64,000 bases of DNA from a candidate division TM6 bacterium UASB124. GTDB taxonomy: Bacteria > Babelota > Babeliae > Babelales > RVW-14. The notes beneath the pieces are model-generated. The model ran no database searches and was not told where the DNA came from. It was given only the letters and a program-made list of their open reading frames with translations. The translations under genes and the position numbers were made by a program. The stretch spans positions 23,992 through 87,991 of the forward strand of contig CAMDFF010000002.1 of the NCBI GenBank assembly GCA_945897315.1. The letters run 5' to 3'. Positions 12,165 through 55,566 of this stretch are shown piece after piece; within the stretch, counting starts at the first letter, position 1, and each line of letters starts with the position of its first letter.

Positions 12165-12269
12165 TGTATCATTGCCTTGTAGTTGTGCACGTGTGACCAA
12201 ATTTATAAAAAAATAGCAACTGTGCTATACTTTGGGGGAATAATTTATTTTTCTGTGAAAGGTTTTTCC

Positions 12270-13913
12270 ATGGATATGAGTTGGATGGTTGTTGTTCCTC
12301 CCTTAATTGTAATTCTTTTAGCTGCTATTACCAAGCGTATTTTATTTGCGCTTTCAGTTGGGGTTGTTTCGGCATCACTTATTGTTGCTGATGGAAATAT
12401 TTTTAAAGCATGTATCTATGCAGTAAAACGAGTTTTACTGACAATACAAATTACACATGTGACATCGCTTGAAGGATTTTTAGCAAGTACTAATTTCCTC
12501 ATGGTTCTGTTTTTTTTGTTGCTTGGTGTCTTGATCACAATGATCAGATATTCTGGGGCTGCTTACGCCTATGGTGCTTATGTAATGCGCAAGATAAAAA
12601 CAGCCAGAGGTGTACAAGTCGCTTCACTGGTGCTCTCAAATTGCTTTTTCATTGATGACTATTTTGCAAGTATTACTGTTGGGTCAGTAATGCAGTCTAT
12701 TACCGACCATTTTCAGATACCGCGCGTAAAGCTAGCTCTTTTGATAAGCTCACTTGCTGCGCCATTAGCTATTTTGGTGCCTCTTTCAACATGGATAGCT
12801 GATCTGCTTGGGCTGCTGCGTAACACAGGAGTAGGGCTTGATGCTTCAGGTACTATTATTGCGAGTGCCCCCTACTCATTCTATTTATCTTCTGTGCCCT
12901 TTATGATGTATGCAATTATTATTGTTGTGTCGATATGGTACATGGTGCTGACAAAAGCATCATATGGTATTATCGCTCGGCATGAGCGCATAGCGGAGAA
13001 AACTGGCGATTTATTTGGTGGTAAAATACCAGTGGCGCAGCGCAATGCTGAAATTTCTGAAGAGCTCAAAAAAAGTAGTACTTTGTTTGATTTCTTGCTT
13101 CCTATATCATTGCTTTTTGGGCTGACAATTGTGCTGGTACTTTGGACGGGTAATTGGGTTTATTTTGGTGGCAGCAATAACTTAACGCTTACTTTGCAGC
13201 AAGGTCGGATGTTTGTATCATTGTTTTTTGGTGTTGTTGGTTCTGTTTTTATTACTATGGTCTACTATCTCTTTCGTCAGCGTATTCAGCTTAAAAAATT
13301 GCCATCTCTGATACATGAAGGCATGGCAATGATGACTGATTCTATTTGTATGCTACTGCTCATCTGGACTTTAAGTGGCATTATTCGTGATGATCTTAAC
13401 ACGGGTGCTTATTTAGCAAATTTGCTAATTGGGCAGGTGCGTGTTGCCTTTTTTCCATTAATGTTTTTTGCTCTAACCGCTTTCATTTCAACACTCATGG
13501 GTACTGCATGGGGAGCAATAGGCATTTTGGTCCCGTTAGCTTTCAGTATGGTTCCGACATTTTTAGCGTTGCCGTTACCTCTTGATCCAGCTCAAATACC
13601 CTTGTTGAGCGCGCTCCTTGGCGCTATTGTCTGTGGCGCCGTAGTAGGGAACCATATGTCGCCGATTGCTGATGTAATGCTTATGTCTGCGACAAGTGCT
13701 GGTGCATATCACCTGGATGTAGTGAAAAGTCAGATTCAATTGACAGTACCGACAGTTTTTGCAAGCTTATTGGCCTATTATGTTGTAGGGCTTACTTTAG
13801 ATCGATATGGTAGTTTTGTAAGCGCATTAGCTGGTATTTGCTGCGGGTTGGTGGCCAACCTGGTATGCTTGCATCTCTTCCAATGGATTGATATAAAACG
13901 CAAAGGGCGCTAG
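12270..13913 (+). CDS. NhaC-family Na+/H+ antiporter-like transporter, paralogue 1
   Basis: Polytopic. GNHMSPIADVMLMSATSAG resembles the NhaC C-terminal SP.SDTT motif. I moved the start to MDMSWMVVVPPLIV so it aligns with the paralogue's MEASWFVVLPPLIV. Confidence 0.6.
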   Translation: MDMSWMVVVPPLIVILLAAITKRILFALSVGVVSASLIVADGNIFKACIYAVKRVLLTIQITHVTSLEGFLASTNFLMVLFFLLLGVLITMIRYSGAAYAYGAYVMRKIKTARGVQVASLVLSNCFFIDDYFASITVGSVMQSITDHFQIPRVKLALLISSLAAPLAILVPLSTWIADLLGLLRNTGVGLDASGTIIASAPYSFYLSSVPFMMYAIIIVVSIWYMVLTKASYGIIARHERIAEKTGDLFGGKIPVAQRNAEISEELKKSSTLFDFLLPISLLFGLTIVLVLWTGNWVYFGGSNNLTLTLQQGRMFVSLFFGVVGSVFITMVYYLFRQRIQLKKLPSLIHEGMAMMTDSICMLLLIWTLSGIIRDDLNTGAYLANLLIGQVRVAFFPLMFFALTAFISTLMGTAWGAIGILVPLAFSMVPTFLALPLPLDPAQIPLLSALLGAIVCGAVVGNHMSPIADVMLMSATSAGAYHLDVVKSQIQLTVPTVFASLLAYYVVGLTLDRYGSFVSALAGICCGLVANLVCLHLFQWIDIKRKGR

Positions 13914-13975
13914 TAGTGTTATTGGCTTATGCTCAAAATATTGCAGCACATGCGCTTAAAGAAGGGTATTGAGGT

Positions 13976-15652
13976 ATGGAAGCGTCGTGGTTTGTTGTAT
14001 TGCCCCCGCTGATTGTTATAATTATTGCCGCCTGCACTAAGCGTATATTGTTTGCGTTATTTATGGGTATTGCTACGGGGTCTTTGGTTGTTTCAGGGGG
14101 TAGCATTACAGATGCTATTAGCTTTGCTGTAGGTAGACTTTGGCGTGTAACTCAAATTAGTCATTTGAGCTCGTGGGATGGTTTTTGGCGTTGTACATAT
14201 TTTTTTGGATTGATATTTTTTCTATTGCTTAGCATTCTAATTGTCATCATGCGTCGATCTGGTGCTGCATATGCCTATGGTGCGTTTGCATTAAAAAAAA
14301 TACAAACAATGAAAGGTGCTGAGACAGCATCCCTTATCATGTCATGTTTTTTTGCCGCCATTGATGACTACTTTACAAGTATGACCTTGGGATCGGTTAT
14401 GCAACCTATTACTGATCAGTTTAGCATTCCTCGTGTGAAGCTTGCTTTGCTGATTAGTGTTATTGCTGCACCAATATCGATGATATTGCCTTTCTCTAGT
14501 TGGGTTGCTGATTTAATTAGTCTCTTGCGCAGTGCAGGGGTGAGTGATGGCTATAGTGGGTCGATTGTAAAGACTGATCTTTTTGCATTTTATTTTTCAT
14601 CAGTACCTTTTATGTTGTATGCAATTATTATGATTATTATTGTGTGCTATATGACCTCAAAACGGATGTCATATGGGATTATTGCACGTCATGAGCTGTA
14701 TGCCGCCAAGACAGGTGAATTGTTTGATGGAAAGTTAGCGATCATGCCTCCTCAGGGTACAGAGGCTACGGAGGTAGTTAAAAAAAATAGTAAATTAATG
14801 GATTTTCTATTTTCGATTATTACGCTTTACGTATCAACAATTGCTTTGATTTTATGGTCAGGTGGCTGGGTTTTTTTCGGAGGAACAGCGAGTTTTTTTA
14901 GTGCACTACAACATGGAAACTTCTTTTTTTCTTTCGCTGGTGGTGCATTTTGTGCTGTTATCTTGTCCTTTATATATTTTTTAGTGCGCAAGCAGTTGCA
15001 CTATAATCAGGTAGTTGGTGTGGCTATAGATGGCTTTTTGTTAGCTGGTAGCGCGCTGGTTACATTATGGTTTAGTTGGGTCTTTGGTAGTATCATTGCT
15101 AGGGATCTTAAAACGGGGTCTTTCCTAGCAGAGCTGATGATTGGACACGTATCTGTTGCATCTTTCCCTTTAATGTTTTTTATATTATCTGCTGTAATTG
15201 CAACGATTCTTGGTCGAACCAGTGGAACAATTAGTATTTTAGTTCCAATAGCATTTGAGATGGTGCCAGCATTTTTAGGGTTACCATTACCTATTGATTT
15301 AACTCAAGTGCCAATATTGAGCGCACTCTTAGGCGCTATTATTAGTGGATCTGTTGTTGGAAAGCATTTCTCCCCTGTTGCAGACACAACGGTTATGACA
15401 TCAGCGGTTGCAGGGTGTTATCATTTAGATTTAGTTAAGAGCCAGATTCAGTTGGCATTGCCAAGCTTTTTTGCAAGTTTGCTTGGTTATTATGTGATCG
15501 GTATAACGATTGATACATATGGTTCTATGCCAAGCGCGGCAATAGGGTTGAGTGTGGCATTGATTACCAATTTAATTATTGTACATATCTTGCATTGGCT
15601 TAGCAGCTATCGCAGAGATCATTTTTATGATATAGCTAGGCATCGACGATAA
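13976..15652 (+). CDS. NhaC-family Na+/H+ antiporter-like transporter, paralogue 2
   Basis: 558 aa, colinear with the upstream gene over its full length (RSGAAYAYGA, IPRVKLALLIS, SYGIIARHE, GKHFSPVADTTVMTSAVAG). Confidence 0.6.
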   Translation: MEASWFVVLPPLIVIIIAACTKRILFALFMGIATGSLVVSGGSITDAISFAVGRLWRVTQISHLSSWDGFWRCTYFFGLIFFLLLSILIVIMRRSGAAYAYGAFALKKIQTMKGAETASLIMSCFFAAIDDYFTSMTLGSVMQPITDQFSIPRVKLALLISVIAAPISMILPFSSWVADLISLLRSAGVSDGYSGSIVKTDLFAFYFSSVPFMLYAIIMIIIVCYMTSKRMSYGIIARHELYAAKTGELFDGKLAIMPPQGTEATEVVKKNSKLMDFLFSIITLYVSTIALILWSGGWVFFGGTASFFSALQHGNFFFSFAGGAFCAVILSFIYFLVRKQLHYNQVVGVAIDGFLLAGSALVTLWFSWVFGSIIARDLKTGSFLAELMIGHVSVASFPLMFFILSAVIATILGRTSGTISILVPIAFEMVPAFLGLPLPIDLTQVPILSALLGAIISGSVVGKHFSPVADTTVMTSAVAGCYHLDLVKSQIQLALPSFFASLLGYYVIGITIDTYGSMPSAAIGLSVALITNLIIVHILHWLSSYRRDHFYDIARHRR

Positions 15653-15910: not shown

Positions 15911-18115
15911 TTAATCAATGCAGACCCAAGAAAGATCTGATGTAAGTCTATACGTTTTTTGATCTAATGGATTTTGTACAAACAAGAATATCCATTCATT
16001 GCTAAACAATTTTTGCAATAATGGATGACGCTTAATAATACTAGTAACGGTATCATGCCGTGCATAAATAAGCACATGCAATCTAATAGGCTGATAATAC
16101 AGTTTAGCTGATGATGAATATAAAGATTGCATAGGTAATCCATGCATAAGATCACTTGCATTGCCCTGCATAACACCAAATTTCCCAATAATATTTTGTG
16201 TTATTTTACTTCCGCTCCCATAAGCAACAATATCTATGCTTGAAAATAGATATTGGGCATTAATCCATTGAGCAACAATCATAGGAGCAAGTAATATTTT
16301 TTCTAATAATGTACCATTTTGATCAGTAGAATAATTGTACGAATGTAAAAATGAGCGTCCGTTTAAAGATATATGTTTGGTAAGATTGCGAGGCGCAACT
16401 ATAAAAGATGCATTGCCGCAAAGAGCTAACTCAGGGAATGTTTGGGCCCAATCAGCACTACGCGTCCGTATTTTTTCTACCGCATATTTTGACTGACTAC
16501 CTAGTCCCATTGCTTGAAATCTGCCTATATTATTTTTCTTTTTTGCGTGGGTCATGTTTTTTTTAATAGCATCTATTTTTGTAATAACAGCCTGATCGGT
16601 AATATGTGTATCATAAAAAGTAATATCATCTGTCGTCGTATTGTGTAGCGCTGCAAGAAAAAACGTATTGTCAGGAATAACAATGCCCTTGTATGAAAGG
16701 TTCACCCTTACTAATTTGTTATTTAATATAGCAGCCAAGACTTGAGCATTAAGTTCCCCGCTGTGTGCTCCACAAGCACCACAGTCTAAGCTTGATGCAT
16801 TAATATTATTTTCAGAAGAGCTACCATGACCAGAAAAAACGACTATTGGGGCAAAATTATTTGAGAGGCCTATTAATTGTAAAAATTCCTCTGCATAAGA
16901 ACATTGCTGATCTATAGCTATACCAGCTTGCTCTATTCCATCTAAGGTAGCATCTTGAGCAGGTATCTCACTACTAAATTGTTGTTTGATTGTTTTTGCA
17001 ACGTGCGGAAAGGTTGTTTTTAAAAATGTAGCAAGGCCAAAAATCGGACCCATAAATTCAATCAATGGAAAAGGGGTAGCAAAAGAATATTTTAATGACT
17101 GGTATGTTCTTTTTATTAATAATATTAATGCTTTTTTGTTTTGTTTCGCTGCAAAGCTACTACTCCAAGAAATATCTTGCTGTTTAATAATATGCAGCGG
17201 TTTGAGAAGAACAGGGCATAAAGCTATTGGAGATGATACTTCATCATTATAACACCCTAGGGGAATACCAAAAAATCCTGCAGCCCCAAATGTTTCATAC
17301 TGTCCAGAAGACTCTATCGCTCTTCTAAATTGCTCAGATCGTACATCAATACAAAAAACAAATTGGGCATCATAATTCTCAACGTCAGGAGATATGATAG
17401 GAGCAGGATCATTTTTACAGATAGACGATACAAGCCACTCTTGATAGGCATGCTCACATTTCTTGATACCAATAAGAGCTTTTTCATTAATCGGCATGCT
17501 GGTTGCAGTATCTGTATGAAGATATTGTTTTAGCCCCGGAAATAAAACAACTATTAATGCTAGGCGTACTACTAAATAATCAACCCCGCATTGCACGCCT
17601 GGTAGATTCCGCCAGTAATCATTATATTTAATATAACCAGCCCAACCAGGTAATGTGGTTAGCTGGAAAAGTAATGCTTCTTCGTAAAATTCTTCATTCA
17701 GTTCTAATAATTCTAAGCATTGATAAAGAGCCTCTAAAGGGTCGTCTGATAATGAGAGTACAATGTTTTTAGCATCTTTATTATTCATGAATAGTGCATC
17801 ATCAAATACAACTAGCTTTCTCCATGCGCCATATAACGAATAATCTTTGTATGGCATCTTAATAGTTGCTTGCCCTTCATCAAAAAAAGCTGCGCACCAT
17901 TTAATAGTTTCTCTATTAACAATATGCATTTCAGGGGGGATTGCAGCACGCCGAAAATAAGCATCTGCTTTAACTAATGCTTTATTAAAATTTATATTTT
18001 CAAAATAAGCTAAAGGGTTGCGAGCTATAATACTCTTTAGCGGCCATAAAGGTGGAATAACATCCCATGCTTTTTGTATCGCATTATTCAATATGGGAAG
18101 AGATGCGCTTTTCAT
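15911..18115 (-). CDS. dabA: DUF2309/DabA, beta-carbonic-anhydrase-like subunit of the DAB inorganic-carbon accumulation complex
   Basis: 734 aa. FVFCIDVRSEQFRR and SGHGSSSENN...SLDCGACGAHSG are the Cys/Asp...His...Cys blocks of this family. It lies 18 nt downstream of the PF00361-type membrane subunit. Confidence 0.8.
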   Translation of the reverse strand: MKSASLPILNNAIQKAWDVIPPLWPLKSIIARNPLAYFENINFNKALVKADAYFRRAAIPPEMHIVNRETIKWCAAFFDEGQATIKMPYKDYSLYGAWRKLVVFDDALFMNNKDAKNIVLSLSDDPLEALYQCLELLELNEEFYEEALLFQLTTLPGWAGYIKYNDYWRNLPGVQCGVDYLVVRLALIVVLFPGLKQYLHTDTATSMPINEKALIGIKKCEHAYQEWLVSSICKNDPAPIISPDVENYDAQFVFCIDVRSEQFRRAIESSGQYETFGAAGFFGIPLGCYNDEVSSPIALCPVLLKPLHIIKQQDISWSSSFAAKQNKKALILLIKRTYQSLKYSFATPFPLIEFMGPIFGLATFLKTTFPHVAKTIKQQFSSEIPAQDATLDGIEQAGIAIDQQCSYAEEFLQLIGLSNNFAPIVVFSGHGSSSENNINASSLDCGACGAHSGELNAQVLAAILNNKLVRVNLSYKGIVIPDNTFFLAALHNTTTDDITFYDTHITDQAVITKIDAIKKNMTHAKKKNNIGRFQAMGLGSQSKYAVEKIRTRSADWAQTFPELALCGNASFIVAPRNLTKHISLNGRSFLHSYNYSTDQNGTLLEKILLAPMIVAQWINAQYLFSSIDIVAYGSGSKITQNIIGKFGVMQGNASDLMHGLPMQSLYSSSAKLYYQPIRLHVLIYARHDTVTSIIKRHPLLQKLFSNEWIFLFVQNPLDQKTYRLTSDLSWVCID

Positions 18116-18133
18116 AATAAAAACCTTTTATTG

Positions 18134-19474
18134 TTAAAGAGAATAATCATTATGATGCGATGTAACTGTTGCAGGATCTGGCTGACTAGCATTCAATGCC
18201 CAAACATAGAATTTATCTCTCGTCTTTTTTGTAAATAATCTATCAGGATAAAAAATTATGACCTTAAAGATAATCCAAGAAAAAAACATAACAGCAAAAG
18301 CAACAACATGAATTATAGAAAGAAATTGCAGGTCATCTAAAGCTGCCCAGTTGCATAGCTCATGCATTATTTTTACATTGTAGCCATACAATAGCCCGAT
18401 CAGACCAACTAGGGCTAATGCATAGAACACATTGCCAAAATACTTGTCAGACAATATTGTTATTCCAATATCCATGGCAGCAATAAAAACTATGCCGTAT
18501 AAGAAAAGCGTTGCATCTAAAGTGTTTATGTCTTGCATGCTCGCAAACAAATAACAATACAGGCCAATGACCCCACTGGCGATTACTGGAAATAGCAGAT
18601 ATATAGATATTGGAGATAATTCGAGCCTTTTTTCTCGAGCAGCGCTGCCTGCTTGTAAAAATAAATACGCTTTAAAAAAACCATGACATACAATATGAGC
18701 CATTGCTGCAGAAAAAGCACCCAGTCCACATTGCAAAATCATAAAGCCCATTTGAGCAATTGTAGAGCAGGCTAGCATTCGCTTGTTATCGTGTTGGATA
18801 AGTTTCCATGTAGTCCCTAACGTAGCAGATACAACCCCAATGACAACCATACATGAGAGTAACCATGGAAACTGTACATAAAGACGAGAAAACCGAATCA
18901 ACAAAAAGCCGCCTGCGCTAAGAACTCCTGCATGCATTAAGGCTGAAACTTGTGTTGGTGAATTGAGAGAGCTAAGAAGCCATTTATGAAAAGGCCAAAC
19001 GGCTGATTGTACGCAGATGCCAAGCAACAACATAACAAGCCCAATGGGCACATAGCAGTTGCCAGCAGAATCAAAGAGTATTATTTGATTAATAAATCCA
19101 GTCCCTGTTGCGCAATAAAAACAGATAAAACTTAAGGCTATAAAAAATGTGGCCAGAAAAAATGCCCGAGCAGCTAATAATCTTGAGGCTCGCGCAGCAA
19201 GCCAATGTGAGCGATAGGCCATTAAAGAAATAAGTATGAAATTAGTTAAACAAAGACTAAGCCAAAGCAAAAGCAAATGATTTGCAAATACCATAATCAA
19301 AACAAAAAGTAATAACAATGGCATTGCTATCATAAAATAGCTACGTTCACGCTGCGCTTCCATATATCGGAGCGTAAAATAAAACAAATTCAATGCAATA
19401 AAACTAACCAAAAAAGCCATGATTAAGGCTATGCTGTCAACACGTAACAGCTGATACAAAAATGTTTCAGACAT
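18134..19474 (-). CDS. dabB: proton-conducting membrane subunit (NuoL/MrpA-like), DabB
   Basis: Polytopic. TIAQMGFMILQCGLGAFSAAMAHIVCHGFFKAYLFLQAGS matches the NuoL/ND5 core. The start could be ATG 19474 or TTG 19510. Confidence 0.75.
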   Translation of the reverse strand: MSETFLYQLLRVDSIALIMAFLVSFIALNLFYFTLRYMEAQRERSYFMIAMPLLLLFVLIMVFANHLLLLWLSLCLTNFILISLMAYRSHWLAARASRLLAARAFFLATFFIALSFICFYCATGTGFINQIILFDSAGNCYVPIGLVMLLLGICVQSAVWPFHKWLLSSLNSPTQVSALMHAGVLSAGGFLLIRFSRLYVQFPWLLSCMVVIGVVSATLGTTWKLIQHDNKRMLACSTIAQMGFMILQCGLGAFSAAMAHIVCHGFFKAYLFLQAGSAAREKRLELSPISIYLLFPVIASGVIGLYCYLFASMQDINTLDATLFLYGIVFIAAMDIGITILSDKYFGNVFYALALVGLIGLLYGYNVKIMHELCNWAALDDLQFLSIIHVVAFAVMFFSWIIFKVIIFYPDRLFTKKTRDKFYVWALNASQPDPATVTSHHNDYSL

Positions 19475-19683
19475 ATACAACCTAATAATACTACTAATCT
19501 TAAAATACAACCCAACCCAAAGAGTTATTATAGCAAAAAATGAGGGTTTAATTTAGATTTTACTTCTAGCAGTACTGTGTAGCAGGGCAATCTTTTTTGA
19601 ATAAAGCTGATTGTAATACGCTTAATCAAAGACTGGCGTTTATTCAGCGCATTGTAATTATAAATTTTTCAATCCAGATCGTG

Positions 19684-20974: not shown

Positions 20975-22192
20975 ATGCCGTTATATCACTACGAATCATT
21001 AAATCGCCGAGGCGTTCGCGTTAAGGGTACGATAGACGCATCAACTTTGCAAGTCGCAAAAGAGACATTGCAAGGACAGGGCCTTATGCCTATCAGCTTA
21101 GCGGAAGTAGGTGCTGATGGTGGTGCTGGTTTTTCACTAGCGCGCTTGTTTGAGCGCCCAGTAGAGTTGAAAACAGTAATTTTATTTACAAAGCAGCTTG
21201 CTGTACTTTTGAAATCAGGCGTTCCACTGTTGCAGGGCATAGAGCTTCTAACGGAACAGTTTGAAGGTCGATTCAAGCGCATTCTTATTGCCACTAAAGA
21301 TGGTTTAAAATCTGGCGAATCGCTTGCTAAAGAGTTAGCACGCTATCCACGTATTTTCCCAAATGTATATGTTCAGCTAGTAAAAGCTGGGGAAGCAAGC
21401 GGAAAATTAGACACTATTTTGTTACGCTTAACTGAGTATATGCTGCGCACAGAAGAGACTCGCGGCAAGATTAAAAAAGCAATGTCATACCCTCTTATTA
21501 TGTTAGGAGTCGCATGTGCCGTGATTGTTGGCTTGTTAACCAAAATGGTACCAAGTATGAAAGGAATCTTTCAGCAGGGCGGTAAAGAGCTTCCTGGAAC
21601 AACGCAGTTTTTAGTTGATGCATCTGATTTTTTGCTGGGTAATTATATTATGCTTTCGGGACTACTTTTATTGATTCTTCTTCTGGGGTGCTACTGGCGA
21701 TCAACACCGCAGGGTAAGTATCAGATTGATAATTTGTTTTTATCTTTTCCTGTGACGGCCTATTTTTCACGGACTAAAGCAGTTGTTCAATTTACTAAAA
21801 CATTAGGAATGCTGCTTGAAAGTGGCGTAAACTTGCCAGAAGCGCTTGATATTGTGTGTAATATTGTAGACAACAAAGTACTGACGCAAAAACTTAAGCT
21901 CGCGCAAGACAAAATTATTAAAGAAGGTAAAATAGCTCGCTACTTAAAAGAGACGGGTATTTTCCCCAGTATTGCTAGTTACATGATTAGTACTGGTGAG
22001 CAATCGGGGCAATTGTCTCAGATGTTGCTCACTGTTGGGAATGACTATGATGTTGAATTGAATGAACTTACTGAGAGCTTAACAGCAAAGATTGCGCCCA
22101 TTATGACAGTTCTTTTAGTTGGGCTTGTTGGTTTTATTATGATATCGGTTTTATTGCCAATCATGAGCATGGGTGATCTGGCAGGGATTTAA
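20975..22192 (+). CDS. gspF: type II secretion system inner-membrane platform protein F (GspF/PilC family)
   Basis: 405 aa with two repeated T2SSF-type domains (FTKQLAVLLKSGVPLLQGIELL and FTKTLGMLLESGVNLPEALDIV) and three TM segments. Confidence 0.85.
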   Translation: MPLYHYESLNRRGVRVKGTIDASTLQVAKETLQGQGLMPISLAEVGADGGAGFSLARLFERPVELKTVILFTKQLAVLLKSGVPLLQGIELLTEQFEGRFKRILIATKDGLKSGESLAKELARYPRIFPNVYVQLVKAGEASGKLDTILLRLTEYMLRTEETRGKIKKAMSYPLIMLGVACAVIVGLLTKMVPSMKGIFQQGGKELPGTTQFLVDASDFLLGNYIMLSGLLLLILLLGCYWRSTPQGKYQIDNLFLSFPVTAYFSRTKAVVQFTKTLGMLLESGVNLPEALDIVCNIVDNKVLTQKLKLAQDKIIKEGKIARYLKETGIFPSIASYMISTGEQSGQLSQMLLTVGNDYDVELNELTESLTAKIAPIMTVLLVGLVGFIMISVLLPIMSMGDLAGI

Positions 22193-22211: not shown

Positions 22212-22652
22212 ATGAATACGCAACATAAGCAGGCGTTTACGCTTATTGAAATGTTAATGGTTGTTGGTTTAATAGTCTTAGTTTTTGGCTTATTGGGACC
22301 AAAAATTGCTGGCTTACTTGGTAAAAAAGATAAAGCTGCCATGCAATTTAAAATGGTTGCCATTCAAGAGGCGCTCAATGAGTACCGCATGGAGTTTGGT
22401 GCTTATCCAAGCACGCGAGAGGGGCTGCACGCCCTGGTAGAAAACCCACGGCCTAATGATCCTCGGTACCAAGCTGCGGCAGGCAGATGGCCCTTTGCAA
22501 AAGAAGATGGGATTACCGACCAAGCAGGCAATGAAATAATTTATCACTGTCCGCCGGAAGAGTTTAAGAATAAGTACAAGACCTATGAGCTTATTTATCT
22601 TGGTACGACCCAGGCTGAAGATGCGCCTGACCGTTTAGACGCTGGTGCGTAA
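22212..22652 (+). CDS. gspG: major pseudopilin GspG
   Basis: MNTQHKQA/FTLIEMLMVVGLIVL prepilin motif. AMQFKMVAIQEALNEYRMEFGAYPSTREGLHALV matches the GspG core. Confidence 0.85.
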   Translation: MNTQHKQAFTLIEMLMVVGLIVLVFGLLGPKIAGLLGKKDKAAMQFKMVAIQEALNEYRMEFGAYPSTREGLHALVENPRPNDPRYQAAAGRWPFAKEDGITDQAGNEIIYHCPPEEFKNKYKTYELIYLGTTQAEDAPDRLDAGA

Positions 22653-22662
22653 ATAATTTAAA

Positions 22663-22753
22663 TTCCCGCTCTTTCTCGCCTGAAGGCTTCGTCCTTCGAC
22701 AGGCTCCATACTGCGCTCAGGTAGCTTCGAATGGCAGGCAGGAGGAGCGGGTT
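22663..22753. repeat. palindromic repeat element, compact copy (family member I1)
   Basis: The termini ttcccgctctttctcg ... ggaggagcgggtt are inverted. The left half is colinear with 58907..58950 (ttcccccgctttttctcgtcct...cttcgac). Confidence 0.7.
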
Positions 22754-22788
22754 TTGCTACGTTGGGTGGTCTTTTTGATTGGGGCTTG

Positions 22789-23445
22789 ATGGGCTTTTTT
22801 AAGCAAAATATACCGGTAAATTTTCTTTGCTCCGCTCACCCTGAGCTTGTCGAATGGGCGACGTCCGCTAGGACGAGAACGAGCGGGAACACACAACAAG
22901 AATCTCCCTCTGCATTTACGGTCATAGAGCTTTTGCTGGTTATTTTCTTGGGAGGCTTGCTGACGTCGATGGTGTTGCCATTATTGAACCGACAACGGCC
23001 GCAAGAGACGTGGGAGACGCTGCAGGAAGATTTAAATCAGCTTGCATCTTTTGCGCGTGAAGAAGCACTTACTAGGCGCAAAATCTATCGCATAGTGTTT
23101 CAACAAAAGCCTCAGGCTGAAGGCAAAATATTTGTAGAAGAAGAACATACTGATCCTGAACAGCCCGAAAAAAAAACATACAATGCTGTACCCGCTGGTT
23201 ATCAAAAAACATCATTAACGTTAGAGAATGGTAGAACGTTACGTGCTGTATACATCGGAAAACGCAATGTTCTAACTGATCAAGATCCACAGGCATTTTG
23301 CTATGTTATTCCTGATGGGATGATGCAACCAGTTACGATACAGATAGTGCGGGCCCATAAAAATTATGAAGAAATTGTGTCTTTCCAGTTAAATCCCTTT
23401 ATGGGAAGTTTTGATCGTCATGATGGCAAGCTTAAACCAGAATAA
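22789..23445 (+). CDS. minor pseudopilin (GspH-like by position) with an abnormally long leader
   Basis: The prepilin motif SA/FTVIELLLVIFLGGLL begins at nt 22915. The nearest in-frame starts are ATG 22789, TTG 22786 and TTG 22762, so the leader would be 42-51 aa and is encoded partly by repeat I2. Confidence 0.6.
   Translation: MGFFKQNIPVNFLCSAHPELVEWATSARTRTSGNTQQESPSAFTVIELLLVIFLGGLLTSMVLPLLNRQRPQETWETLQEDLNQLASFAREEALTRRKIYRIVFQQKPQAEGKIFVEEEHTDPEQPEKKTYNAVPAGYQKTSLTLENGRTLRAVYIGKRNVLTDQDPQAFCYVIPDGMMQPVTIQIVRAHKNYEEIVSFQLNPFMGSFDRHDGKLKPE
22832..22889. repeat. single ~58-bp module of the same repeat family (I2)
   Basis: ccgctcaccctgagcttgtcgaatgggcgacgtccgctaggacgagaacgagcgggaa. It is near-identical in layout to 30029..30084 and to the reverse complement of 58907..58967. 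Confidence 0.8.
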
Positions 23446-23842
23446 ATCTGCATTCACACTCATCGAAGTACTGATGGTGCTGGGGCTTTTAACACTTAGC
23501 CTAGGTATTATCGTACAAATGCAGATGCGCTCGCTTAATCGGTTGGAGCAAGATCGCGATATGCTGCAAAAAGTTTATATTCTCAGACGCTCCATGTTGG
23601 ATGCGCTTAAAATACCAAAAGCAGACAGATTGCAATTGATAAAAAAAGATTATGAAGACGGCGAGATTAAGACCAAGACTACGTTGCATGATATTGGCAA
23701 AAAATCGAAGCTAAAAAGTTTTGGGAAAAGCATGAAAATGCTTGCGACGGATGCAACCTGGCAGTTGCGTCCTGGCTACAAGCAGCATGCACAACTGATT
23801 TATTTTATGTATCTACCTGATGAAGAAAAGAAACGGACCTAA
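23420..23842 (+). CDS. minor pseudopilin (GspI-like by position and size)
   Basis: MMASLNQNKSA/FTLIEVLMVLGLLTL. About 140 aa. Confidence 0.65.
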   Translation: MMASLNQNKSAFTLIEVLMVLGLLTLSLGIIVQMQMRSLNRLEQDRDMLQKVYILRRSMLDALKIPKADRLQLIKKDYEDGEIKTKTTLHDIGKKSKLKSFGKSMKMLATDATWQLRPGYKQHAQLIYFMYLPDEEKKRT

Positions 23843-23845
23843 CCT

Positions 23846-24844
23846 ATGAAGCGGTATGGTTTTACTATTCTAGAAATGCTTTTAGCTGTAGGCCTTTCGT
23901 GTGTACTGCTGTATGGTCTGATGTATGCGTTTTTGTCAGTGACACGCTATGTTACGGTCATGCGTGAAATGACGACTATGCAGCGTGCTGTGGGGCTGAC
24001 ATTTTATCAGCTGCGTACTGATGTGAGCGCGGCGTTTGTACCAGAAGTGCTATACAAAGATGAAACAGCGGAAGAAAAGCAAAAGCAAAAAGCAGCGGAC
24101 GCGCAGCTAAGTAAAGAGAAAAAAGAGGCGCAAGACAAAGCTGCCTTTAAATCGTATTTTTTGCTTTCGTTTGACGATCATCTTGATGCAAGCAAAATTG
24201 AAGGAACGCGTCGATATCCCTTTAAAATACTGAGTTTTGTGACGACTAATCCATTACACGTTTTTGGGCAAAAACAGCCTCGCTTAGTGCGCGTTGTGTA
24301 TGAAATAATTCGTAATAAAAAGAGATCAACACGAGATCGAGATGTGTTCTCATTGAGACGCAAAGAAGTAACCGATATTGCCAATGCTGAGGCTAAAGCA
24401 GGTTTTAAAGACAAAGAGCGTGAAAAAGACACTGAAGATGCTATTGTGCAGAGCTACGTGGTTGCTGATAATTTGCGTGGGGCTTACCTTGAATGTGAGC
24501 TGCTGAAAAAAGATGTGCCTCGTAAAAAAGATGAGACTGAAAAAGAGATCCCTGAAGGGGAGATGGTGCAAAGTACGACCTGGGGAGATAAAGATCCACT
24601 GCAGGGGTTTGTGCCTCGTAGCGTGAGCTGCTGGTTGTGGTTTTGGCAGGGTGATTCGCAAAAATCGATTTTGTTTGGTGAGGTGATTGAAATTAAGAGC
24701 TACCCGTCAATCCATGTAACTATTGAAGAAAAAAAATCTGAAAAGCCAACAGAGCAACCAGTTCAGCAATTAGCACCGCAGTCTCCACCTGCAGCAGAGG
24801 CTACACAACTAGGTATTGCGCTTGTACCAGGGGTGCCATCATGA
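23846..24844 (+). CDS. minor pseudopilin (GspJ-like by position), enlarged
   Basis: MKRYG/FTILEMLLAVGL. 332 aa with charged K/E-rich insertions and a P/Q-rich tail. Confidence 0.6.
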   Translation: MKRYGFTILEMLLAVGLSCVLLYGLMYAFLSVTRYVTVMREMTTMQRAVGLTFYQLRTDVSAAFVPEVLYKDETAEEKQKQKAADAQLSKEKKEAQDKAAFKSYFLLSFDDHLDASKIEGTRRYPFKILSFVTTNPLHVFGQKQPRLVRVVYEIIRNKKRSTRDRDVFSLRRKEVTDIANAEAKAGFKDKEREKDTEDAIVQSYVVADNLRGAYLECELLKKDVPRKKDETEKEIPEGEMVQSTTWGDKDPLQGFVPRSVSCWLWFWQGDSQKSILFGEVIEIKSYPSIHVTIEEKKSEKPTEQPVQQLAPQSPPAAEATQLGIALVPGVPS

Positions 24845-27951: not shown

Positions 27952-28041
27952 TTATTTGATCTGCTCGATGCGGTTTAAAAATACACTTAGGAGGCGATAG
28001 TCTTTGCCAGAGAGCAAAGGCAAAGGGGATGAAATATTTTC
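27952..28041 (-). pseudogene. orphan 3' fragment paralogous to the C-terminus of the 29615..30379 gene
   Basis: The minus strand reads ENISSPLPLLSGKDYRLLSVFLNRIEQIK*. The real gene ends EEISHGFALLSGNDYRRLKVFLHRIEQIK*, so 20 of 29 residues are identical. The fragment has no start codon, and an in-frame stop lies just upstream. Confidence 0.65.
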
Positions 28042-28170: not shown

Positions 28171-29484
28171 TTATTTTTTACTAGGAGAGAGCCTTCCTAT
28201 AAGCGTTTTAAGATCTCTGGTCAGATTCATTATTCTGTCGTCAGCTACGATAAGGGAAAGACCATCCACTAAAGCGTTAAGAAGATGAAGGTTTTCTTTT
28301 TGTTTTTCTATAACGGTGTGCAATGATTGCTTACATCCTTGCAATGGAGTGCATAGCGCGCTGCTGCAAGGATATTCTAACAATTGTGTTATCTGATCAG
28401 CTGTAGCTTTCTTTAGGGCAAGCGTCAATATATCTAGCTGGCTCCCCTGAGCAGCAATATGTATCACAATAAAAAATAGACTATCATTGTGTTTTGTTAT
28501 CTCAGATATTACCTCAGCAGTTAATAATGCAATAGCTTTCTTCTTCATTATTGCTTGAAAAATGCGAATATAGTCTGACGGTTCGATAGCCTCTAAATCT
28601 CTAAGTGCACTTAATACTTGTTCTGCGGTGGTGCCACGTTGTATTAGCGTCAGAATATTAGTAACTTCTTTTATGCCTGGCATTGTGCTCGTACTACTAC
28701 TGCCTGCACCACTAGCTGCAGCACTGGCGGCAGCAGGCACGGAGCCTCCTCCAGAGCCACCGCAAAGAGGAATAGGACTTGGTGTTATTGCGGCAGTAGT
28801 TGCTGATCCGGCTCCAGAGCCGCCAGACAGAGGTGGTACTAATTTTAGTGGGGCAGATGGCTCGCGAAAAGTTAATCTTGTTTGTAGTTTGCGGGTGGTC
28901 TCTGTAAGTGGTGCGCTTGGGGCATCGGCTGCTACGGTTTTTGGAGGGGTAGCATTTGGGACCTTAAATGGTGATGTGTTTGCAGCGTGAGAGAGAGTGG
29001 CTACTGGTCTTTCAGGGCTTGCTGTAGCACCACCAGCTGCTACAGGTGCTGCTACAGGTATCGGCCTAAGCTGCACAGTAGGAGGAAGGGGCTGGTGTAA
29101 TAAGTTTCTTGGTGCTGGGCTTACTTGAGGGGTAGGTTGGCTAGCTGATATTGATGATGCTGCTGTGTGAGATGCGCTGCTAGAGCTTGATGCTCTAGCC
29201 GGATCTTGCTGTGGTAGTGGTGCTAGTGGTTGAGCTGGTTTGCGGCCTAAAGGTCGAGGTGTTTTTAGAGGTGATGGTGAGGTTGCGATGGATGATGGTG
29301 AAAGCACAGAAGACGATGGTGATCTTGTGATGGATGATGGTGAAGTCACAGAAGGCAATGGAGCCCCTGCTGCTGATCGTATTGCTGGAAAAGCACCAGC
29401 TCCGCCGTTTGCAGAACTAGAAAAAAGTGACGATGACCCAATGGTATATGCAATACCAAGAGTGATAATAATGCGATTAACCAT
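28171..29484 (-). CDS. hypothetical protein: signal peptide, ~270-aa Pro/Ser/Ala-rich low-complexity region, ~160-aa helical C-terminal domain
   Basis: 437 aa. MVNRIIITLGIAYTIGSSSLFSS, then SPSS/AAPV/GGSG-type low complexity. The C-terminal domain has one ankyrin-like stretch (FFIVIHIAAQGSQLDILTLALKK). GC-rich relative to the flanks. Confidence 0.6.
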   Translation of the reverse strand: MVNRIIITLGIAYTIGSSSLFSSSANGGAGAFPAIRSAAGAPLPSVTSPSSITRSPSSSVLSPSSIATSPSPLKTPRPLGRKPAQPLAPLPQQDPARASSSSSASHTAASSISASQPTPQVSPAPRNLLHQPLPPTVQLRPIPVAAPVAAGGATASPERPVATLSHAANTSPFKVPNATPPKTVAADAPSAPLTETTRKLQTRLTFREPSAPLKLVPPLSGGSGAGSATTAAITPSPIPLCGGSGGGSVPAAASAAASGAGSSSTSTMPGIKEVTNILTLIQRGTTAEQVLSALRDLEAIEPSDYIRIFQAIMKKKAIALLTAEVISEITKHNDSLFFIVIHIAAQGSQLDILTLALKKATADQITQLLEYPCSSALCTPLQGCKQSLHTVIEKQKENLHLLNALVDGLSLIVADDRIMNLTRDLKTLIGRLSPSKK

Positions 29485-29614: not shown

Positions 29615-30379
29615 TTATTTGATCTGCTCAATACGATGTAAAAAAACCTTTAGCCGTCGATAATCGTTGCCTGAAAGCAAAGCAAATCCGTGGCTAATTT
29701 CTTCTAAGAGGTTAGCCGAGAGTAGGTTTTTAGCTTTAACCGTACGAATAATAGCTAGCAAAAGCTCATCTAAATTCTGAATAGCGTTAGAAAAACCATA
29801 CAGAACCTCTAAAAATTGGGCGTCGGCGAAGAATTGTGTAGTCAGTGTGTCAGGAGCTTCGCTGACAAAAGCATGGATCTTAGGAGGTGTAGGCGGTATA
29901 GCAAAGATGATCGGAGAATCCGCTCTTTCTTGGCCCGTTGGGCCGGCGGCCTGCGACAAGCTCAGGGTGAGCGGTTTTGCTAAGCCATGCGTATCATCTA
30001 CATTAATTAAAGAATCGATTATTTCTCTCCGCTCACCCTGAGCTTGTCGAGCGGGCGAGCTCGTAGAGTGAGAAAGAGTGGGTTTAATGTACCCACAGGC
30101 CTGCACAGAAAATGTTGTCTTCAGAAAAGCAAAAATTTGTGGCTGTTCCCGTTCTAGCTCTTCTTCAGTTTTTTGATACGCAAATGGTGTGCGTGATGGA
30201 TCCATTGATCCTGTTTGGATATTGGTGACGATTCCTAAAATGTGGAGCTCTTTGTCTTGAATACTGACAAGCGAACCAAAGGTAGGGAACTGTTTCCAGT
30301 TCCAGCATTGTGCTGTGTAATGGTCAAGGGACGATTCTATGACCTCAGCAAAAAAGGGATGTTTGTTTTGGTTCTTCAT
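29615..30379 (-). CDS. hypothetical protein carrying a repeat-element-encoded internal segment
   Basis: 254-aa ORF that overlaps the rnhB stop by 35 nt. Roughly residues 99-154 (KPTLSHSTSSPARQAQGE...KPLTLSLSQAAGPTGQERAD) are encoded by repeat I3. Confidence 0.55.
   Translation of the reverse strand: MKNQNKHPFFAEVIESSLDHYTAQCWNWKQFPTFGSLVSIQDKELHILGIVTNIQTGSMDPSRTPFAYQKTEEELEREQPQIFAFLKTTFSVQACGYIKPTLSHSTSSPARQAQGERREIIDSLINVDDTHGLAKPLTLSLSQAAGPTGQERADSPIIFAIPPTPPKIHAFVSEAPDTLTTQFFADAQFLEVLYGFSNAIQNLDELLLAIIRTVKAKNLLSANLLEEISHGFALLSGNDYRRLKVFLHRIEQIK
29918..30084. repeat. full palindromic repeat element (I3) inside an ORF
   Basis: Perfect 21-bp inverted arms cgacaagctcagggtgagcgg (29954..29974) and ccgctcaccctgagcttgtcg (30029..30049). 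The outer inverted ends are tccgctctttct / agaaagagtggg. Confidence 0.85.
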
Positions 30380-31052: not shown

Positions 31053-31224
31053 GACATGAGTTTTTTCTCATCTAAAAGCTTTCTTTTAGTTTTTTGTCTC
31101 CATGTCACAAAATTTTTAATTATACATCTAGTAATTTTTTTCTGGCTTTTGAAAAGAGGTTTGATTATATTATTGAAAAGTTATGGCAATGTTTGAATTT
31201 TTGGCAAAGTAAGAAGGGGTTTAC

Positions 31225-31916: not shown

Positions 31917-31968
31917 AAAAATTCCCGCTCGTCTTGGTCGGTTTCGATTGAGACAAGCGGGAATTTTT
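31917..31968. terminator. bidirectional terminator between convergent genes
   Basis: aaaaATTCCCGCTCGTCT-(16 nt)-AGACAAGCGGGAATtttt, with one mismatch. Its ends (ttcccgct/agcgggaa) resemble the repeat-family termini. Confidence 0.7.
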
Positions 31969-32005: not shown

Positions 32006-33211
32006 TTAATTTTCGTTAATGCTGCCGCTACGGCGCCAGCTGATTAATTTTGTATTGTCCATGGTTGTATCTTCATCGCCACCGTGGACGACAAACGTAC
32101 GAATTTTATTGGGCGAATAAGCTTCTGGATTGTGATAATTTTCAACGATTTTGCGTAGCTCAGATAGTCCAGTTAAGAATGATCGCTTAATGATTGGGTT
32201 TGATTTAATTTCAATAGCCCGTATGTGGTTGGCATAGTTGAGGAGAACATCAACTTCATGGCCTTGCTCATCACGCCAAAAATAGACATTGGAGCGATCG
32301 CCCAGATTAATACAACTTTTGATTTGTTCCATAATAATTAAATTCTCAAAAAGAGCGCCATACATGCTGTGGTCAGGGATATCTGAGGGTGATTTTATTT
32401 TTAGCAGTGAACACACTAATGCAGTATCGGTAAAATAGATCTTGGGCGATTTAATTAGGCTTTTACTGAAATTGTGGTAGTACGGCTGTACTCGATAAAT
32501 GATAAAGCAGGTTTCTAAAATATTAAGCCATTTTTGCGCTGTTTCTGTAGTGATTTTGCAATCGCTTGCTAGCGTAACAAGATTAACGACACTGCCAATG
32601 CGTGTGGCCAGGATTTGAAGAAACGTTTGAAAGGTTGGTAGGCTGTCAATCCTAATTAATGTACGAGCATCACGTTCCAGGTACGTCGAAATGTAGTTTA
32701 TAGCCCAGCGCATTGCTTGCTTTATGTTCATTTCTTGTTCCCAAGGCTCAGGAAACAAACCACGAAAAAGCACTTCTGGTAAGCCATTGGTTGGTTTAAT
32801 TTCGGCAAGCGATGGGGGTAGTAAATTAATGATTGCAGCTCGTCCTGCTAACGTTTGTGTAATTTGCTCCATCATCAAAAAGTTTTGTGACCCTGTTAAA
32901 ATCACGCGACCATTCCGGCGGCGCTCAGCATCAACGATGCCTTGAAGGTATGAAGTAATGGAAGGAATTTTTTGAAATTCATCGATAATAACGCCCGGAT
33001 GTTCTGCTAATGCCTTGAGCAAAAAACCCTCCACATCGGCCGCAAATTCTGCTCTTACGGTTTCATTTTCAAGCAAAACGTATTTATAAGTTGGAAAAAG
33101 TGCTTGTGCGAGTGTTGTTTTTCCTGATTGCCGTGGGCCGGTTATGTACACCACAGGAAATTGTTGTGCGCAGGCAAGTATTTCTTCTTCTAGCTGTCGC
33201 TTGATCATCAC
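32006..33211 (-). CDS. AAA_14/DUF4143-type ATPase
   Basis: 401 aa. Walker A is ITGPRQSGKTTL and Walker B is VIIDEFQ. The C-terminal half is typical of DUF4143 proteins. Confidence 0.75.
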   Translation of the reverse strand: MMIKRQLEEEILACAQQFPVVYITGPRQSGKTTLAQALFPTYKYVLLENETVRAEFAADVEGFLLKALAEHPGVIIDEFQKIPSITSYLQGIVDAERRRNGRVILTGSQNFLMMEQITQTLAGRAAIINLLPPSLAEIKPTNGLPEVLFRGLFPEPWEQEMNIKQAMRWAINYISTYLERDARTLIRIDSLPTFQTFLQILATRIGSVVNLVTLASDCKITTETAQKWLNILETCFIIYRVQPYYHNFSKSLIKSPKIYFTDTALVCSLLKIKSPSDIPDHSMYGALFENLIIMEQIKSCINLGDRSNVYFWRDEQGHEVDVLLNYANHIRAIEIKSNPIIKRSFLTGLSELRKIVENYHNPEAYSPNKIRTFVVHGGDEDTTMDNTKLISWRRSGSINEN

Positions 33212-51115: not shown

Positions 51116-52186
51116 TTAGCGTAGGGCAGGGCACTCTTCTAAGTAATGATGCAGCTGTTTTTGCAAGGTGTAATGCTGGGCAGCAACAAAGCTGCGCTCG
51201 CTCATTGTTTCTCGTGCCTGCGTGTCATGAAGATAAGTGTTGATCTTTTCTACTAACTCGTCAATGCCTTCAAAGCAGGCAATGGAATAATCTTCTTGAA
51301 AGAAGAGCTTGGATTGTTGATCGGTGCGCTCAGTTAGCAGGAATGATTTTGTTGCAGGAACCTCGAAGGTGCGCATGTTGTGGGCATGTGCATTTTGTGC
51401 TCTCAGCAGATTGAGGATGATTTTTGATTTTTTATAAATATCGATCATTGCATCAGCATAAATAGCCTTTCCCATCAGATGTTTTTTGATATGCGAAGAA
51501 GTTGCATGCTCATGCCAGCCGTTTCCCCAGATGCCAAATGTAACGTTTGGTAGTCGCATTATTGCTTGCTCCAAAAATGCTTCTCGTTCTGGCTCCCATG
51601 TGCCAATAAAACAGATATCGATCTGTTCGTTCTCTCTTGCTCTCTGAGCGTTGTCTTTCGACGAGCTCAGGATGTGCGGTTTTTGTTTATCATTATAAAT
51701 AGTGTCGTCATAAGCAAACGGGAAAGAGCACACGTGAGGGGACCCTGAAGCCAGGAGTGCTGGGGTAAGTATGGGTGACCACGATAAAAAACAGTCAAAT
51801 AGTGGCAGCGATTTTAAAATAGACTCTGTTGAGTTACCGTTCCAGAGGGCGTATGGATTATCCGGGTAAAAATTGACGACACGCGCACCAGCTGATTTGA
51901 TGGCCGCGATAGTGCGTGGGGTGATGTGTTGTCCCTTGAGAATAAAGACCAGTGACGGGCTATGTTGTTTTACTGCTGCCAGAATAGTTTTATTTATGCC
52001 TGCTATTGCAAGTGGCAGAGCAATTTTATTAATTACTGGAGTGTTCTGAAATGGTCCAACTGGGCTGCAATCTACCTGTGCTGTTTCGTAACCTAGTAGT
52101 TGAAACGTTTTATAAAATGATGATGCATAGGTATAAATATTCGGGTCGGTACTAAATTTACCAACAATAAGTACTTTCTTATTCAT
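51116..52186 (-). CDS. CgeB-like glycosyltransferase-family protein (Glyco_trans_1_2 type)
   Basis: CFIGTWEPEREAFLEQ...NLLRAQNAHAHNMRTFEVPATKSFLLTE resembles CgeB/DUF3880-type proteins. I chose the start at MNKKVLIVGKF. Confidence 0.5.
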   Translation of the reverse strand: MNKKVLIVGKFSTDPNIYTYASSFYKTFQLLGYETAQVDCSPVGPFQNTPVINKIALPLAIAGINKTILAAVKQHSPSLVFILKGQHITPRTIAAIKSAGARVVNFYPDNPYALWNGNSTESILKSLPLFDCFLSWSPILTPALLASGSPHVCSFPFAYDDTIYNDKQKPHILSSSKDNAQRARENEQIDICFIGTWEPEREAFLEQAIMRLPNVTFGIWGNGWHEHATSSHIKKHLMGKAIYADAMIDIYKKSKIILNLLRAQNAHAHNMRTFEVPATKSFLLTERTDQQSKLFFQEDYSIACFEGIDELVEKINTYLHDTQARETMSERSFVAAQHYTLQKQLHHYLEECPALR

Positions 52187-55535: not shown

Positions 55536-55566
55536 AGCAATTAACTTTCATATAAAAACAGAATTT

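Follow-up and report, generated by a model that had tools for sequence, protein, structure and literature searches.

A hairpin-forming repeat in the predicted leader of a GspH-like prepilin of Dependentiae, with a candidate GIY-YIG nuclease partner

Pseudopilins of the type II secretion system (T2SS) have leaders of 5–10 amino acids (aa), so why does a GspH-like minor pseudopilin gene in a 64,000-nucleotide (nt) stretch of contig CAMDFF010000002.1 appear to open with a leader of 42 aa? The stretch at its full length, hereafter the window, is low-GC (~42%) chromosomal DNA of Dependentiae/Babeliales, judged by the names of homologues, and carries a gspF-G-H-I-J-K operon followed by a gene for an MlaD protein. 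Between gspG and the cleavage site of the GspH-like protein lie two copies of a short palindromic repeat, one of which falls within the leader-coding sequence. We consider it likely that a selfish repeat has lengthened a cleavable prepilin leader here, through the mechanism and with the nuclease partner proposed below; this repeat resembles the repetitive extragenic palindromic (REP) sequences and Rickettsia palindromic elements (RPEs) of other bacteria.

The long leader and its relatives

The features of the junction, in order of position, are:
20975–22192: gspF
22212–22652, plus strand: gspG, major pseudopilin, with leader MNTQHKQA/FTLIE (Pfam T2SSG, E 1.2e-10)
22663–22753, minus strand: reverse repeat unit with a 33-nt internal insert, beginning 10 nt past the gspG stop and followed by GTTTTGC
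22754–22831, plus strand: 78-nt spacer between the units, holding the in-frame codons TTG 22762, TTG 22786 and ATG 22789
22762–23445, plus strand: GspH-like open reading frame (ORF)
22789–22914, plus strand: coding sequence of the putatively translated 42-aa prepilin leader, MGFFKQNIPVNFLCSAHPELVEWATSARTRTSGNTQQESPSA
22832–22889, plus strand: intact forward unit in the leader-coding sequence (nhmmer E 1.5e-14; exact core match)
22915–23445, plus strand: mature GspH-like minor pseudopilin, starting FTVIELLLVIFLGG

The F of the processing motif FTVIE is encoded at 22915. The three codons of the spacer are the only in-frame starts of the GspH-like gene and none occurs later, so that the leader measures 42 aa from ATG 22789 or 51 aa from TTG 22762. 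ATA 22810, the sole near-cognate codon past ATG 22789, also precedes the forward unit, and the in-frame codons at 22890–22914 (AAC ACA CAA CAA GAA TCT CCC TCT GCA) include no near-cognate start. Because no start lies between the forward unit and the cleavage site, any GspH-like product would be translated through the unit. These positions agree with an earlier sequence-only reading of the window, which had placed no start nearer than ATG 22789 and had set a leader of 42–51 aa against neighbouring leaders of 5–11 aa; the latter measure 8 aa in GspG, 10–11 aa in the GspI-like and 5 aa in the GspJ-like pseudopilin (MKRYG/F). The GspH-like family comprises 439 representatives, and among the 150 best, which were examined for annotated leader length, the mode is 6–9 aa and the maximum ~25 aa; leaders beyond ~25 aa belong to repeat-bearing proteins only. 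Peptidases of type IVb prepilins process leaders of ~15–30 residues, so length alone need not preclude processing. The present case differs from such long-leader (type IVb/Tad-type) prepilins in that 42 aa exceeds their usual range and in that its length would be secondary, the result of a repeat entering a gene whose family normally has leaders of 6–9 aa.

The mature part of the GspH-like protein aligns over its full length with orthologues at 61–68% identity, with many invariant residues, and its prepilin signal, SA/FTVIELLLVIFLGGLLTSMVLPLL, has A at −1, F at +1, E at +5 and a hydrophobic stretch. The match to the NCBIfam GspH model TIGR01708 (E 2.5e-7, under the curated cut-off) begins at residue 52, which is the F at +1; the ORF gave no match to Pfam N_methyl at E 0.01. 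GspG likewise falls under the curated cut-off of its NCBIfam model (E 3e-17), and gspI-K are intact downstream. As a separate observation, Ala rather than the usual Gly stands at −1 in three of the four window pseudopilins (22212–23900: QA/F, SA/F, SA/F); G/F is found in the GspJ-like protein alone.

The GspH-like protein was aligned with six relatives, and the DNA of the relatives' loci (designated L with a number) was compared. Three junctions hold no repeat: in L004 the spacer measures 51 nt and contains a plain GC hairpin and a U-run, and the leader is MQNNKRA/F; L007 has a plain hairpin and TTG/GTG starts that give a 6–8-aa leader; and in L009 gspG and gspH overlap, with a 9-aa leader and no hairpin. 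L001 and L006 share the window layout of reverse unit, ATG-holding spacer and forward unit, with leaders of 31 aa and 47 aa, respectively, in open frames. Three species thus keep an open frame across the unit, with the core read in the alternative open frame in L006 (RSLSKDE). Leaders therefore measure 6–9 aa without and 31–47 aa with the repeat, and relatives do not keep a long leader apart from it, in keeping with the repeat origin that the sequence-only reading had supposed. Once the 33-nt insert is removed, the reverse unit of the window matches its positional counterpart in L001 (L001:960-1014) at ~91% identity; the spacers of the two align codon for codon, and the 5′ junction of the forward unit follows 14 codons in both. 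Together these likenesses point to an old arrangement whose frame has been maintained.

Other pseudopilin leaders have received the repeat as well. The GspI-like leader of L001 holds a unit recognised by the unit hidden Markov model (HMM; MKVNLNQNS[PLPLLLSLSKDAPLGVEERS]SQA/F), the GspJ-like leader of L004 holds a unit pair and measures 58 aa compared with 5 aa in the window, and L001 and L007 have units in the spacer between gspF and gspG as well.

We suggest the following course of events. A ~55-nt hairpin-forming selfish repeat family would have colonised Dependentiae genomes, with a reverse copy taking the short gspG-gspH spacer, where relatives have an ordinary terminator-like hairpin, and a forward copy entering the first codons of the GspH-like gene in a stop-free frame. 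ATG 22789 would have stayed upstream, so that translation passes through the repeat and yields a 42-aa leader instead of one of 6–9 aa. This leader would be cytoplasmic and cut by prepilin peptidase at A/F, leaving the mature pseudopilin unchanged and the insertion tolerated; we take the long leader to be tolerated rather than required. In-frame copies would survive in leaders and surface loops, and a UPF0213-type GIY-YIG nuclease, by analogy with the Ssn/NTS system described below, would take the hairpins as targets for recognition or cleavage and would be connected with their spread.

The repeat unit, its fold and its dispersal

The repeat module is ~55 nt long. Its 20-nt core, CGCTCACCCTGAGCYTGTCG, has five window matches at ≤3 mismatches and none in 100 dinucleotide-preserving shuffles, and nhmmer E-values of the window units range from 1e-14 to 4e-10. 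Besides the two units at the gspG-gspH junction, the window contains:
29918–29975 (minus strand) and 30028–30084 (plus strand): unit, 52-nt spacer and unit in a HAS-barrel gene
58838–58893 (forward) and 58907–58967 (reverse): unit pair at the 5′ end of a GT4 gene, forming one long hairpin
51647–51679, minus strand: probable decayed unit (nhmmer E 3e-4; core with 3 mismatches)

Core matches and nhmmer recover every module listed by the sequence-only reading, including the partner modules that it had placed near 29918 and 58841, and singles, head-to-head pairs and tail-to-tail pairs all occur as it described. Its compact palindromic version at 22663–22753 is indeed a repeat copy, although it is actually a reverse unit with an internal insert that looks like a forward-core fragment. 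This stretch alone folds at −40.5 kcal/mol (z −3.15), and its hairpin is trailed by GUUUUGC, with 4 U only; the whole of 22663–22889 forms one long hairpin of −98.5 kcal/mol (z −4.6), and the GT4 pair (58832–58972) has a minimum free energy of −67.6 kcal/mol (z −7.2). A simple terminator scan calls none of the units, 22663–22753 included, because their loops are too long for the scan. The decayed unit is read in frame as ...KPHILSSSKDNAQRARENE... in a 386-aa ORF (51116–52276, minus strand) of a glycosyltransferase cluster. Relative to the leading strand, the window units divide three and three, with no bias. The likeness that had been drawn between the units and the terminator at 31917–31968 holds for 8–9-nt stem ends (TTCCCGCT/AGCGGGAA), which are all that the two have in common, and is weak, since the unit HMM does not recognise the terminator. 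In its own right, 31917–31968 is a perfect bidirectional terminator between convergent genes whose stem ends ATTCCCGC...GCGGGAAT resemble the dRS3/NTS (CGTC-1 REP) stem; it has no match to the SRM pattern given below.

Alignments of 20 and 28 units support a fold of three helices in units that begin CCGCTC and end GAGCGG. The closing stem P1 (CGCTC/GAGCG, 6–9 bp) is lengthened by covarying bases. P2 is a 4-bp stem, YCCT/AGGR or TGGT/ACCA, that presents an invariant 11-nt loop, GAGCYTGTCGA. P3 is a hypervariable stem of 4–7 bp with GNA or GNNA loops. The fold was tested on a subtype-restricted alignment with explicit structure; RNAalifold missed P3 on a MAFFT alignment in which this helix is misaligned. 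Paired cells amount to 88.3% compared with 79.4% in shuffles (none of 500 as high) and 42–50% with slid partners, and both-sided changes occur at 10 pairs. P2 is 100% paired, with double changes at three of its four pairs, and P3 stems average −8.0 kcal/mol when native and −3.9 kcal/mol when chimeric. A G·T pair conserved in 26 of 28 units makes the fold strand-specific. This strand specificity, together with the occurrence of units in both orientations relative to genes, suggests that the unit acts as a single-stranded DNA (ssDNA) substrate rather than as an mRNA element.

The earlier reading had proposed a dispersed family, with local duplication as the alternative. Scanning metagenomes for the short unit type gave 38 stretches, low-GC loci of the Dependentiae type contain 52 units over >15 contigs, and a 19-nt core is found in at least 120 genome stretches from many phyla, so dispersal is confirmed. 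Hosts of the core include Dehalococcoidia and other Chloroflexota, Sphingomonadales, Anaeromyxobacter (Myxococcota), Binatia, Thermodesulfobacteriota and Methylomirabilota, and in these genomes the core usually forms the arms of a long hairpin. Viral or proviral contigs also carry this core, in 21 stretches (L170-L190, IMG/VR), and may have served as a vehicle for spread between phyla. At five Dehalococcoidia loci (L019, L039, L056, L076 and L086), CCTGAGCYTGTCGAAGG arms are interleaved with NTS/SRM-type arrays (CGTCATTCCCGCGAAAGCGGGAATCCAG), so that two hairpin families coexist in dense clusters. No Rfam family at the gathering threshold matches the repeat in the whole window or at seven related loci, and E-value mode on two loci returned noise only (HIV_FE, ARRPOF). 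No description of the repeat was found in the literature searched for Dependentiae palindromes, the encoded peptides or the DNA core; the supplements of PMC3733652 do not list the repeat-encoded peptides, and PMC11602168, on conserved MITEs (miniature transposable elements with inverted repeats), holds nothing relevant to the repeat.

The clearest in-frame insertion outside the T2SS operon is that of the HAS-barrel gene (29615–30379, minus strand). The window protein has 254 aa in a family of ~200 aa (977 matches), and an insert of 50–53 aa is present only in it and in P0009 (251 aa), at the same codon. The closest relatives, at 88–89% identity, are without the insert, and the two insert-bearing lineages are not each other's closest relatives. 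The inserted DNA consists of unit, spacer and unit (159 nt in the window, 150 nt in L130), the spacer thus belonging to the insert. In the AlphaFold model, insert residues 103–153 have pLDDT <50 with confidently modelled flanks, and the insert is therefore predicted to lie in a disordered loop. Units also stand in frame inside DapF, iPGM (a unit pair) and a histidine kinase in related contigs. At the GT4 gene (58767–60182), orthologues start at the signal or transmembrane helix and an in-frame GTG within the reverse unit would give an orthologue-like N-terminus, so the units at 58838–58967 may be 5′ untranslated region (UTR) rather than coding.

In a census of the 52 units, 21 are intergenic, 20 lie no more than 60 codons from an ORF start and 11 are internal; orientation relative to genes shows no bias (~15 forward, 14 reverse in the tally from this census). 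The idea that unit, spacer and unit form a single MITE with a conserved interior was rejected because spacers differ by locus, apart from short AT-rich ends. A further feature of the HAS-barrel region is a 68-nt direct repeat (79% identity; 27952–28019 and 29615–29682) that copies the 3′ end of the gene (..LLSGKDYRLLSVFLNRIEQIK*). It flanks a 1.66-kb segment with a Pro/Ser/Ala-rich 437-aa ORF (28171–29484) containing internal 42- and 63-nt repeats, and this segment looks like an insertion with target duplication.

The RPEs of Rickettsia, reportedly described by Ogata et al. in 2000, are among the closest parallels to these insertions. REP/RPE insertions that keep the frame are on record, as are N-terminal “decorations” and dimers joined head-to-head or tail-to-tail, and RPEs have been reviewed (PMC10969869; PMC3733652). 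Like RPEs, the units are palindromic repeats of an obligate intracellular bacterium that lie in frame within unrelated housekeeping genes, with N-termini and surface loops as frequent sites; the copies add peptide to the encoded proteins and decay over time. Empty and filled alleles are seen for the HAS-barrel gene, with further in-frame copies in the three genes named above. Unlike RPEs, which measure ~100–150 bp and are confined to Rickettsia, the units have ~55 nt, another sequence, a three-helix fold, a cross-phylum core and a Dependentiae host; RPE-4 and RPE-6 are CGTC-type REPs (PMC3733652), whereas the CGTC pattern is missing from the units. No report of prepilin leaders as an insertion site was found in the literature searched.

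REPs and their composite forms (bacterial interspersed mosaic elements, BIMEs) are likewise short hairpin repeats that occur as singles and inverted dimers without target-site duplication, mostly after genes and sometimes inside genes or at ORF N-termini, with proposed roles in termination and mRNA stability (PMC3733652). The units are dispersed hairpins of this kind, as singles and inverted dimers near gene ends, but lack the GTAG or CGTC tag that stands unpaired at one end of the stem-loop in the two REP superfamilies (Di Nocera 2013), the CGTC type having a CCA-like tail as well; they have CCGCTC...GAGCGG ends and are longer than the 20–40 bp usual for REPs. In a REPtron the repeats flank the gene of a REP-associated tyrosine transposase (RAYT; IS200/IS605-type), a Y1 (HUH) enzyme; the gene that the present units flank encodes a GIY-YIG nuclease rather than a RAYT, and this nuclease is their candidate partner. 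Bacterial MITEs and related repeats (Coxiella QMITE1/2, PMC5896051; Neisseria Correia, ERIC and SPRITE, PMC10969869) are also small and non-autonomous, with some copies in frame in ORFs and some terminator-like. What defines a MITE is its terminal inverted repeats, the duplication of its target site and its origin from an insertion sequence (IS). Despite the 6–9-bp closing stem, the label MITE was rejected because there is no target-site duplication at the HAS-barrel junction and no parent IS in the window. Of the REP/MITE-like behaviour that the sequence-only reading had proposed, the first half thus stands, and “REP/RPE-like” is the better term.

A candidate nuclease partner

A search for genes between inverted arms found an ORF of ~100 aa that encodes a GIY-YIG nuclease. 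In one Dependentiae lineage (L118:5085-5490 = L130:299-710) the forward unit is followed after 16 nt by the ATG of this gene, and the reverse unit overlaps its 3′ end. The cassette (~560 nt) stands upstream of RNase HII and is absent at the orthologous site in the window (31053–31100) and in L131 (775–964). L113, a metagenome-assembled genome of Sphingomonadaceae, carries a nuclease in an equal layout (1880–2245) between 33-nt inverted arms, GCGCTCACCCTGAGCATGTCGAAGGGCGAGCGC and GCGCTCGCCCTTCGACAAGCTCAGGGTGAGCGC, and the Dependentiae and sphingomonad proteins are 46% identical (E 2e-31). In a second Dependentiae copy (L151/L158), a unit is present on one side only, 22 nt past the stop. Searching plasmids and chromids by tblastn with the L113 protein gave further homologues, of which that of Sphingomonas parapaucimobilis (L193) is flanked by a sister arm type and those of two Methylobacterium records (L192 and L194) by more distant arms that share CCTGAG...TCGAAGG. 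Counting the one-sided L151/L158 copy and the sister and distant arms, the nuclease is bracketed in six of eight homologues examined. The protein is of the UPF0213 type, with best PDB matches 1zg2 (E 7e-13) and 1ywl, and belongs to Pfam GIY-YIG. It is 33% identical to the SRM-flanked GIY-YIG nuclease of L117, which we take to be Ssn-type.

Ssn GIY-YIG nucleases (cd10448) are flanked by NTS/SRM hairpins, equivalent to dRS3 or CGTC-1 REP (Chenal et al. 2025, PMC11893778), and cut ssDNA beside these repeats (PMC11893778). The present arrangement resembles Ssn/NTS in its small stand-alone GIY-YIG gene between inverted hairpin copies, its IS-like layout, the additional dispersal of the repeat, and a distribution across phyla with enrichment in symbionts. 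The repeat–nuclease–repeat architecture is two-sided in L118/L130 and L113 and involves sister or distant arms in L193, L192 and L194. It differs from Ssn/NTS in repeat architecture and probably in nuclease subfamily, its protein being of the UPF0213 type, and its nuclease–repeat pairing is putative. The published SRM pattern, HGTCWYN(0-2)YYVSBRHN(0-5)WNVSBRGN(0-2)RNCYNB (PMC11893778), has no match in the window, L118, L168, L113, L192 or L193, nor in any of 28 units; L117, L019 and L086, used as positive controls, match it, SRMs flank the L117 GIY-YIG gene and they are abundant in the Dehalococcoidia loci.

By this analogy, the UPF0213-type GIY-YIG nuclease is the most likely partner of the repeat and stands as a candidate for that role, and the pairing is probably a new variant of the Ssn/NTS theme. 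The stronger proposal that CCTGAGC...TCGAAGG repeats, which range from Dependentiae to Sphingomonadales and Chloroflexota, are the cognate DNA of a UPF0213/YhbQ-type nuclease, with which they form an IS-like arm–nuclease–arm cassette moving between phyla, is put forward tentatively, as a serious contender that falls a little short of being probable. If it is true, a second system would exist in parallel to Ssn/NTS, the UPF0213 family would gain its first functional clue, and non-autonomous units, by inserting in frame, would be seen to reshape proteins, among them T2SS pseudopilins in their cleavable leaders. Should the nuclease link hold, there would be a substrate to test for a widespread, uncharacterised family; the pairing of site-specific ssDNA nucleases with genomic hairpin repeats, for which Ssn is the paradigm, would become general; and new ssDNA tools might follow.

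Competing explanations, implications and neighbouring genes

Several points weigh against a selfish repeat that has lengthened a cleavable leader. At ATG 22789 the Shine-Dalgarno-like sequence is weak (GGGG), and translation of the leader, which the conserved open frame suggests, is putative, as is its processing. The forward unit of the window shares 89% identity with a paralogue of its own genome and 72% with its positional orthologue in L001, a pattern that calls for gene conversion or re-insertion. Five of five leader-proximal units are forward, but they may represent only about three independent events. At the single clean empty/filled pair, that of the HAS-barrel gene, no target-site duplication is seen. 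Nor does the 64-kb window contain a GIY-YIG gene, or its 48 ORFs a transposase, RAYT or IS; and two of the eight nuclease homologues, L191 (S. paeninsulae) and L195 (Legionella lytica), have no arms.

The best surviving alternative is that the junction elements have been co-opted as a regulator, which would be compatible with a selfish origin. The reverse unit would then be a partial terminator or an mRNA-stabilising hairpin after gspG, and the 227-nt hairpin, whose loop holds the start codon, would hold down translation of the minor pseudopilins, the two together setting the high ratio of GspG to minor pseudopilin. Features in keeping with this are the GC-rich hairpin 3′ of gspG in five of six lineages, with or without the repeat and with a U-run in L004; the GUUUUGC after the reverse unit and the stability of the whole region; the compensatory changes by which the positional orthologues of the window and L001 differ in all three helices; and the recurrence of units at the gspF|G, G|H, I and J junctions. 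However, the L009 junction lacks a hairpin altogether, the U-run at the window site is short and the terminator scan is silent there, units also lie inside unrelated enzymes in both orientations, so that a local function is not needed, and the compensatory differences could arise equally by replacement with another subfamily copy. We regard regulation as rather unlikely to be the explanation of the locus, and a secondary attenuator role at the gspG-gspH junction as possible.

It is improbable that the insertion silenced or crippled the GspH-like gene, with a fortuitously open frame and no long-leader prepilin. Gene callers do place the start downstream, giving a 158-aa product (P0001) without the N-terminal helix, and the weak ribosome-binding site and the lack of an N_methyl score are as expected of a disabled gene. 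Yet the mature part has kept its 61–68% identity, gspI-K are intact, the window and L001 spacers correspond codon for codon, and ~42 codons are open in three diverged species, once in a different core frame; by our estimate, ~42 random codons would stay open with a chance of ~0.13 per species. More doubtful still is a functional repeat-encoded peptide, that is, a targeting, chaperone-binding or regulatory leader selected in pseudopilins. Leader insertions in three different pseudopilin genes, the uniformly forward orientation of leader-proximal units and the basic residues just ahead of the cleavage site would suit such a peptide, but the frames differ (HPELVEG vs SLSKDE), the peptide is poorly conserved, equal DNA gives unrelated peptides in enzyme loops that are predicted to be disordered, and independent events are few. 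A non-canonical start downstream of the unit, or recoding, which would leave a short real leader and make the unit 5′-UTR, is hardly credible: at the GT4 gene a GTG in frame is available within a unit, which may be untranslated there, but at this junction 22890–22914 contains no near-cognate codon and ATA 22810 lies upstream of the unit.

A selfish repeat that lengthens a cleavable leader would extend “selfish DNA inside protein-coding genes”, best known from Rickettsia, to Dependentiae. The cleaved prepilin leader would be a safe harbour for such insertions, and these genes offer a natural test of the leader length that prepilin peptidase tolerates. The three-helix architecture and cross-phylum reach of the repeat appear new against the literature searched, as would its probable pairing with a UPF0213-type nuclease, and a structured repeat across phyla is thereby defined for which Rfam has no matching model. 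For annotation, gene callers mis-start such genes, and spurious “PELVEG/LSLSK/RQAQGER” peptides result.

Other genes of the window are of separate interest. A DabA/DabB-type inorganic-carbon transporter pair (15911–19510, minus strand; DabA E 8e-202 and a Proton_antipo_M subunit) adjoins the T2SS operon and is unexpected for a reduced intracellular genome. Paralogous genes include tandem members of a Na+/H+ antiporter family (12183–15652), two AAA_14/DUF4143 ATPases (32006–33211 and 39376–40761) and two neighbouring ORFs of ~417 aa without a Pfam match (54279–56817). A 247-aa protein encoded at 38427–39170 (minus strand) combines zf-RING_2 (E 5e-13) with ankyrin repeats and resembles a eukaryote-like E3-ligase effector, which fits an intracellular symbiont or parasite.

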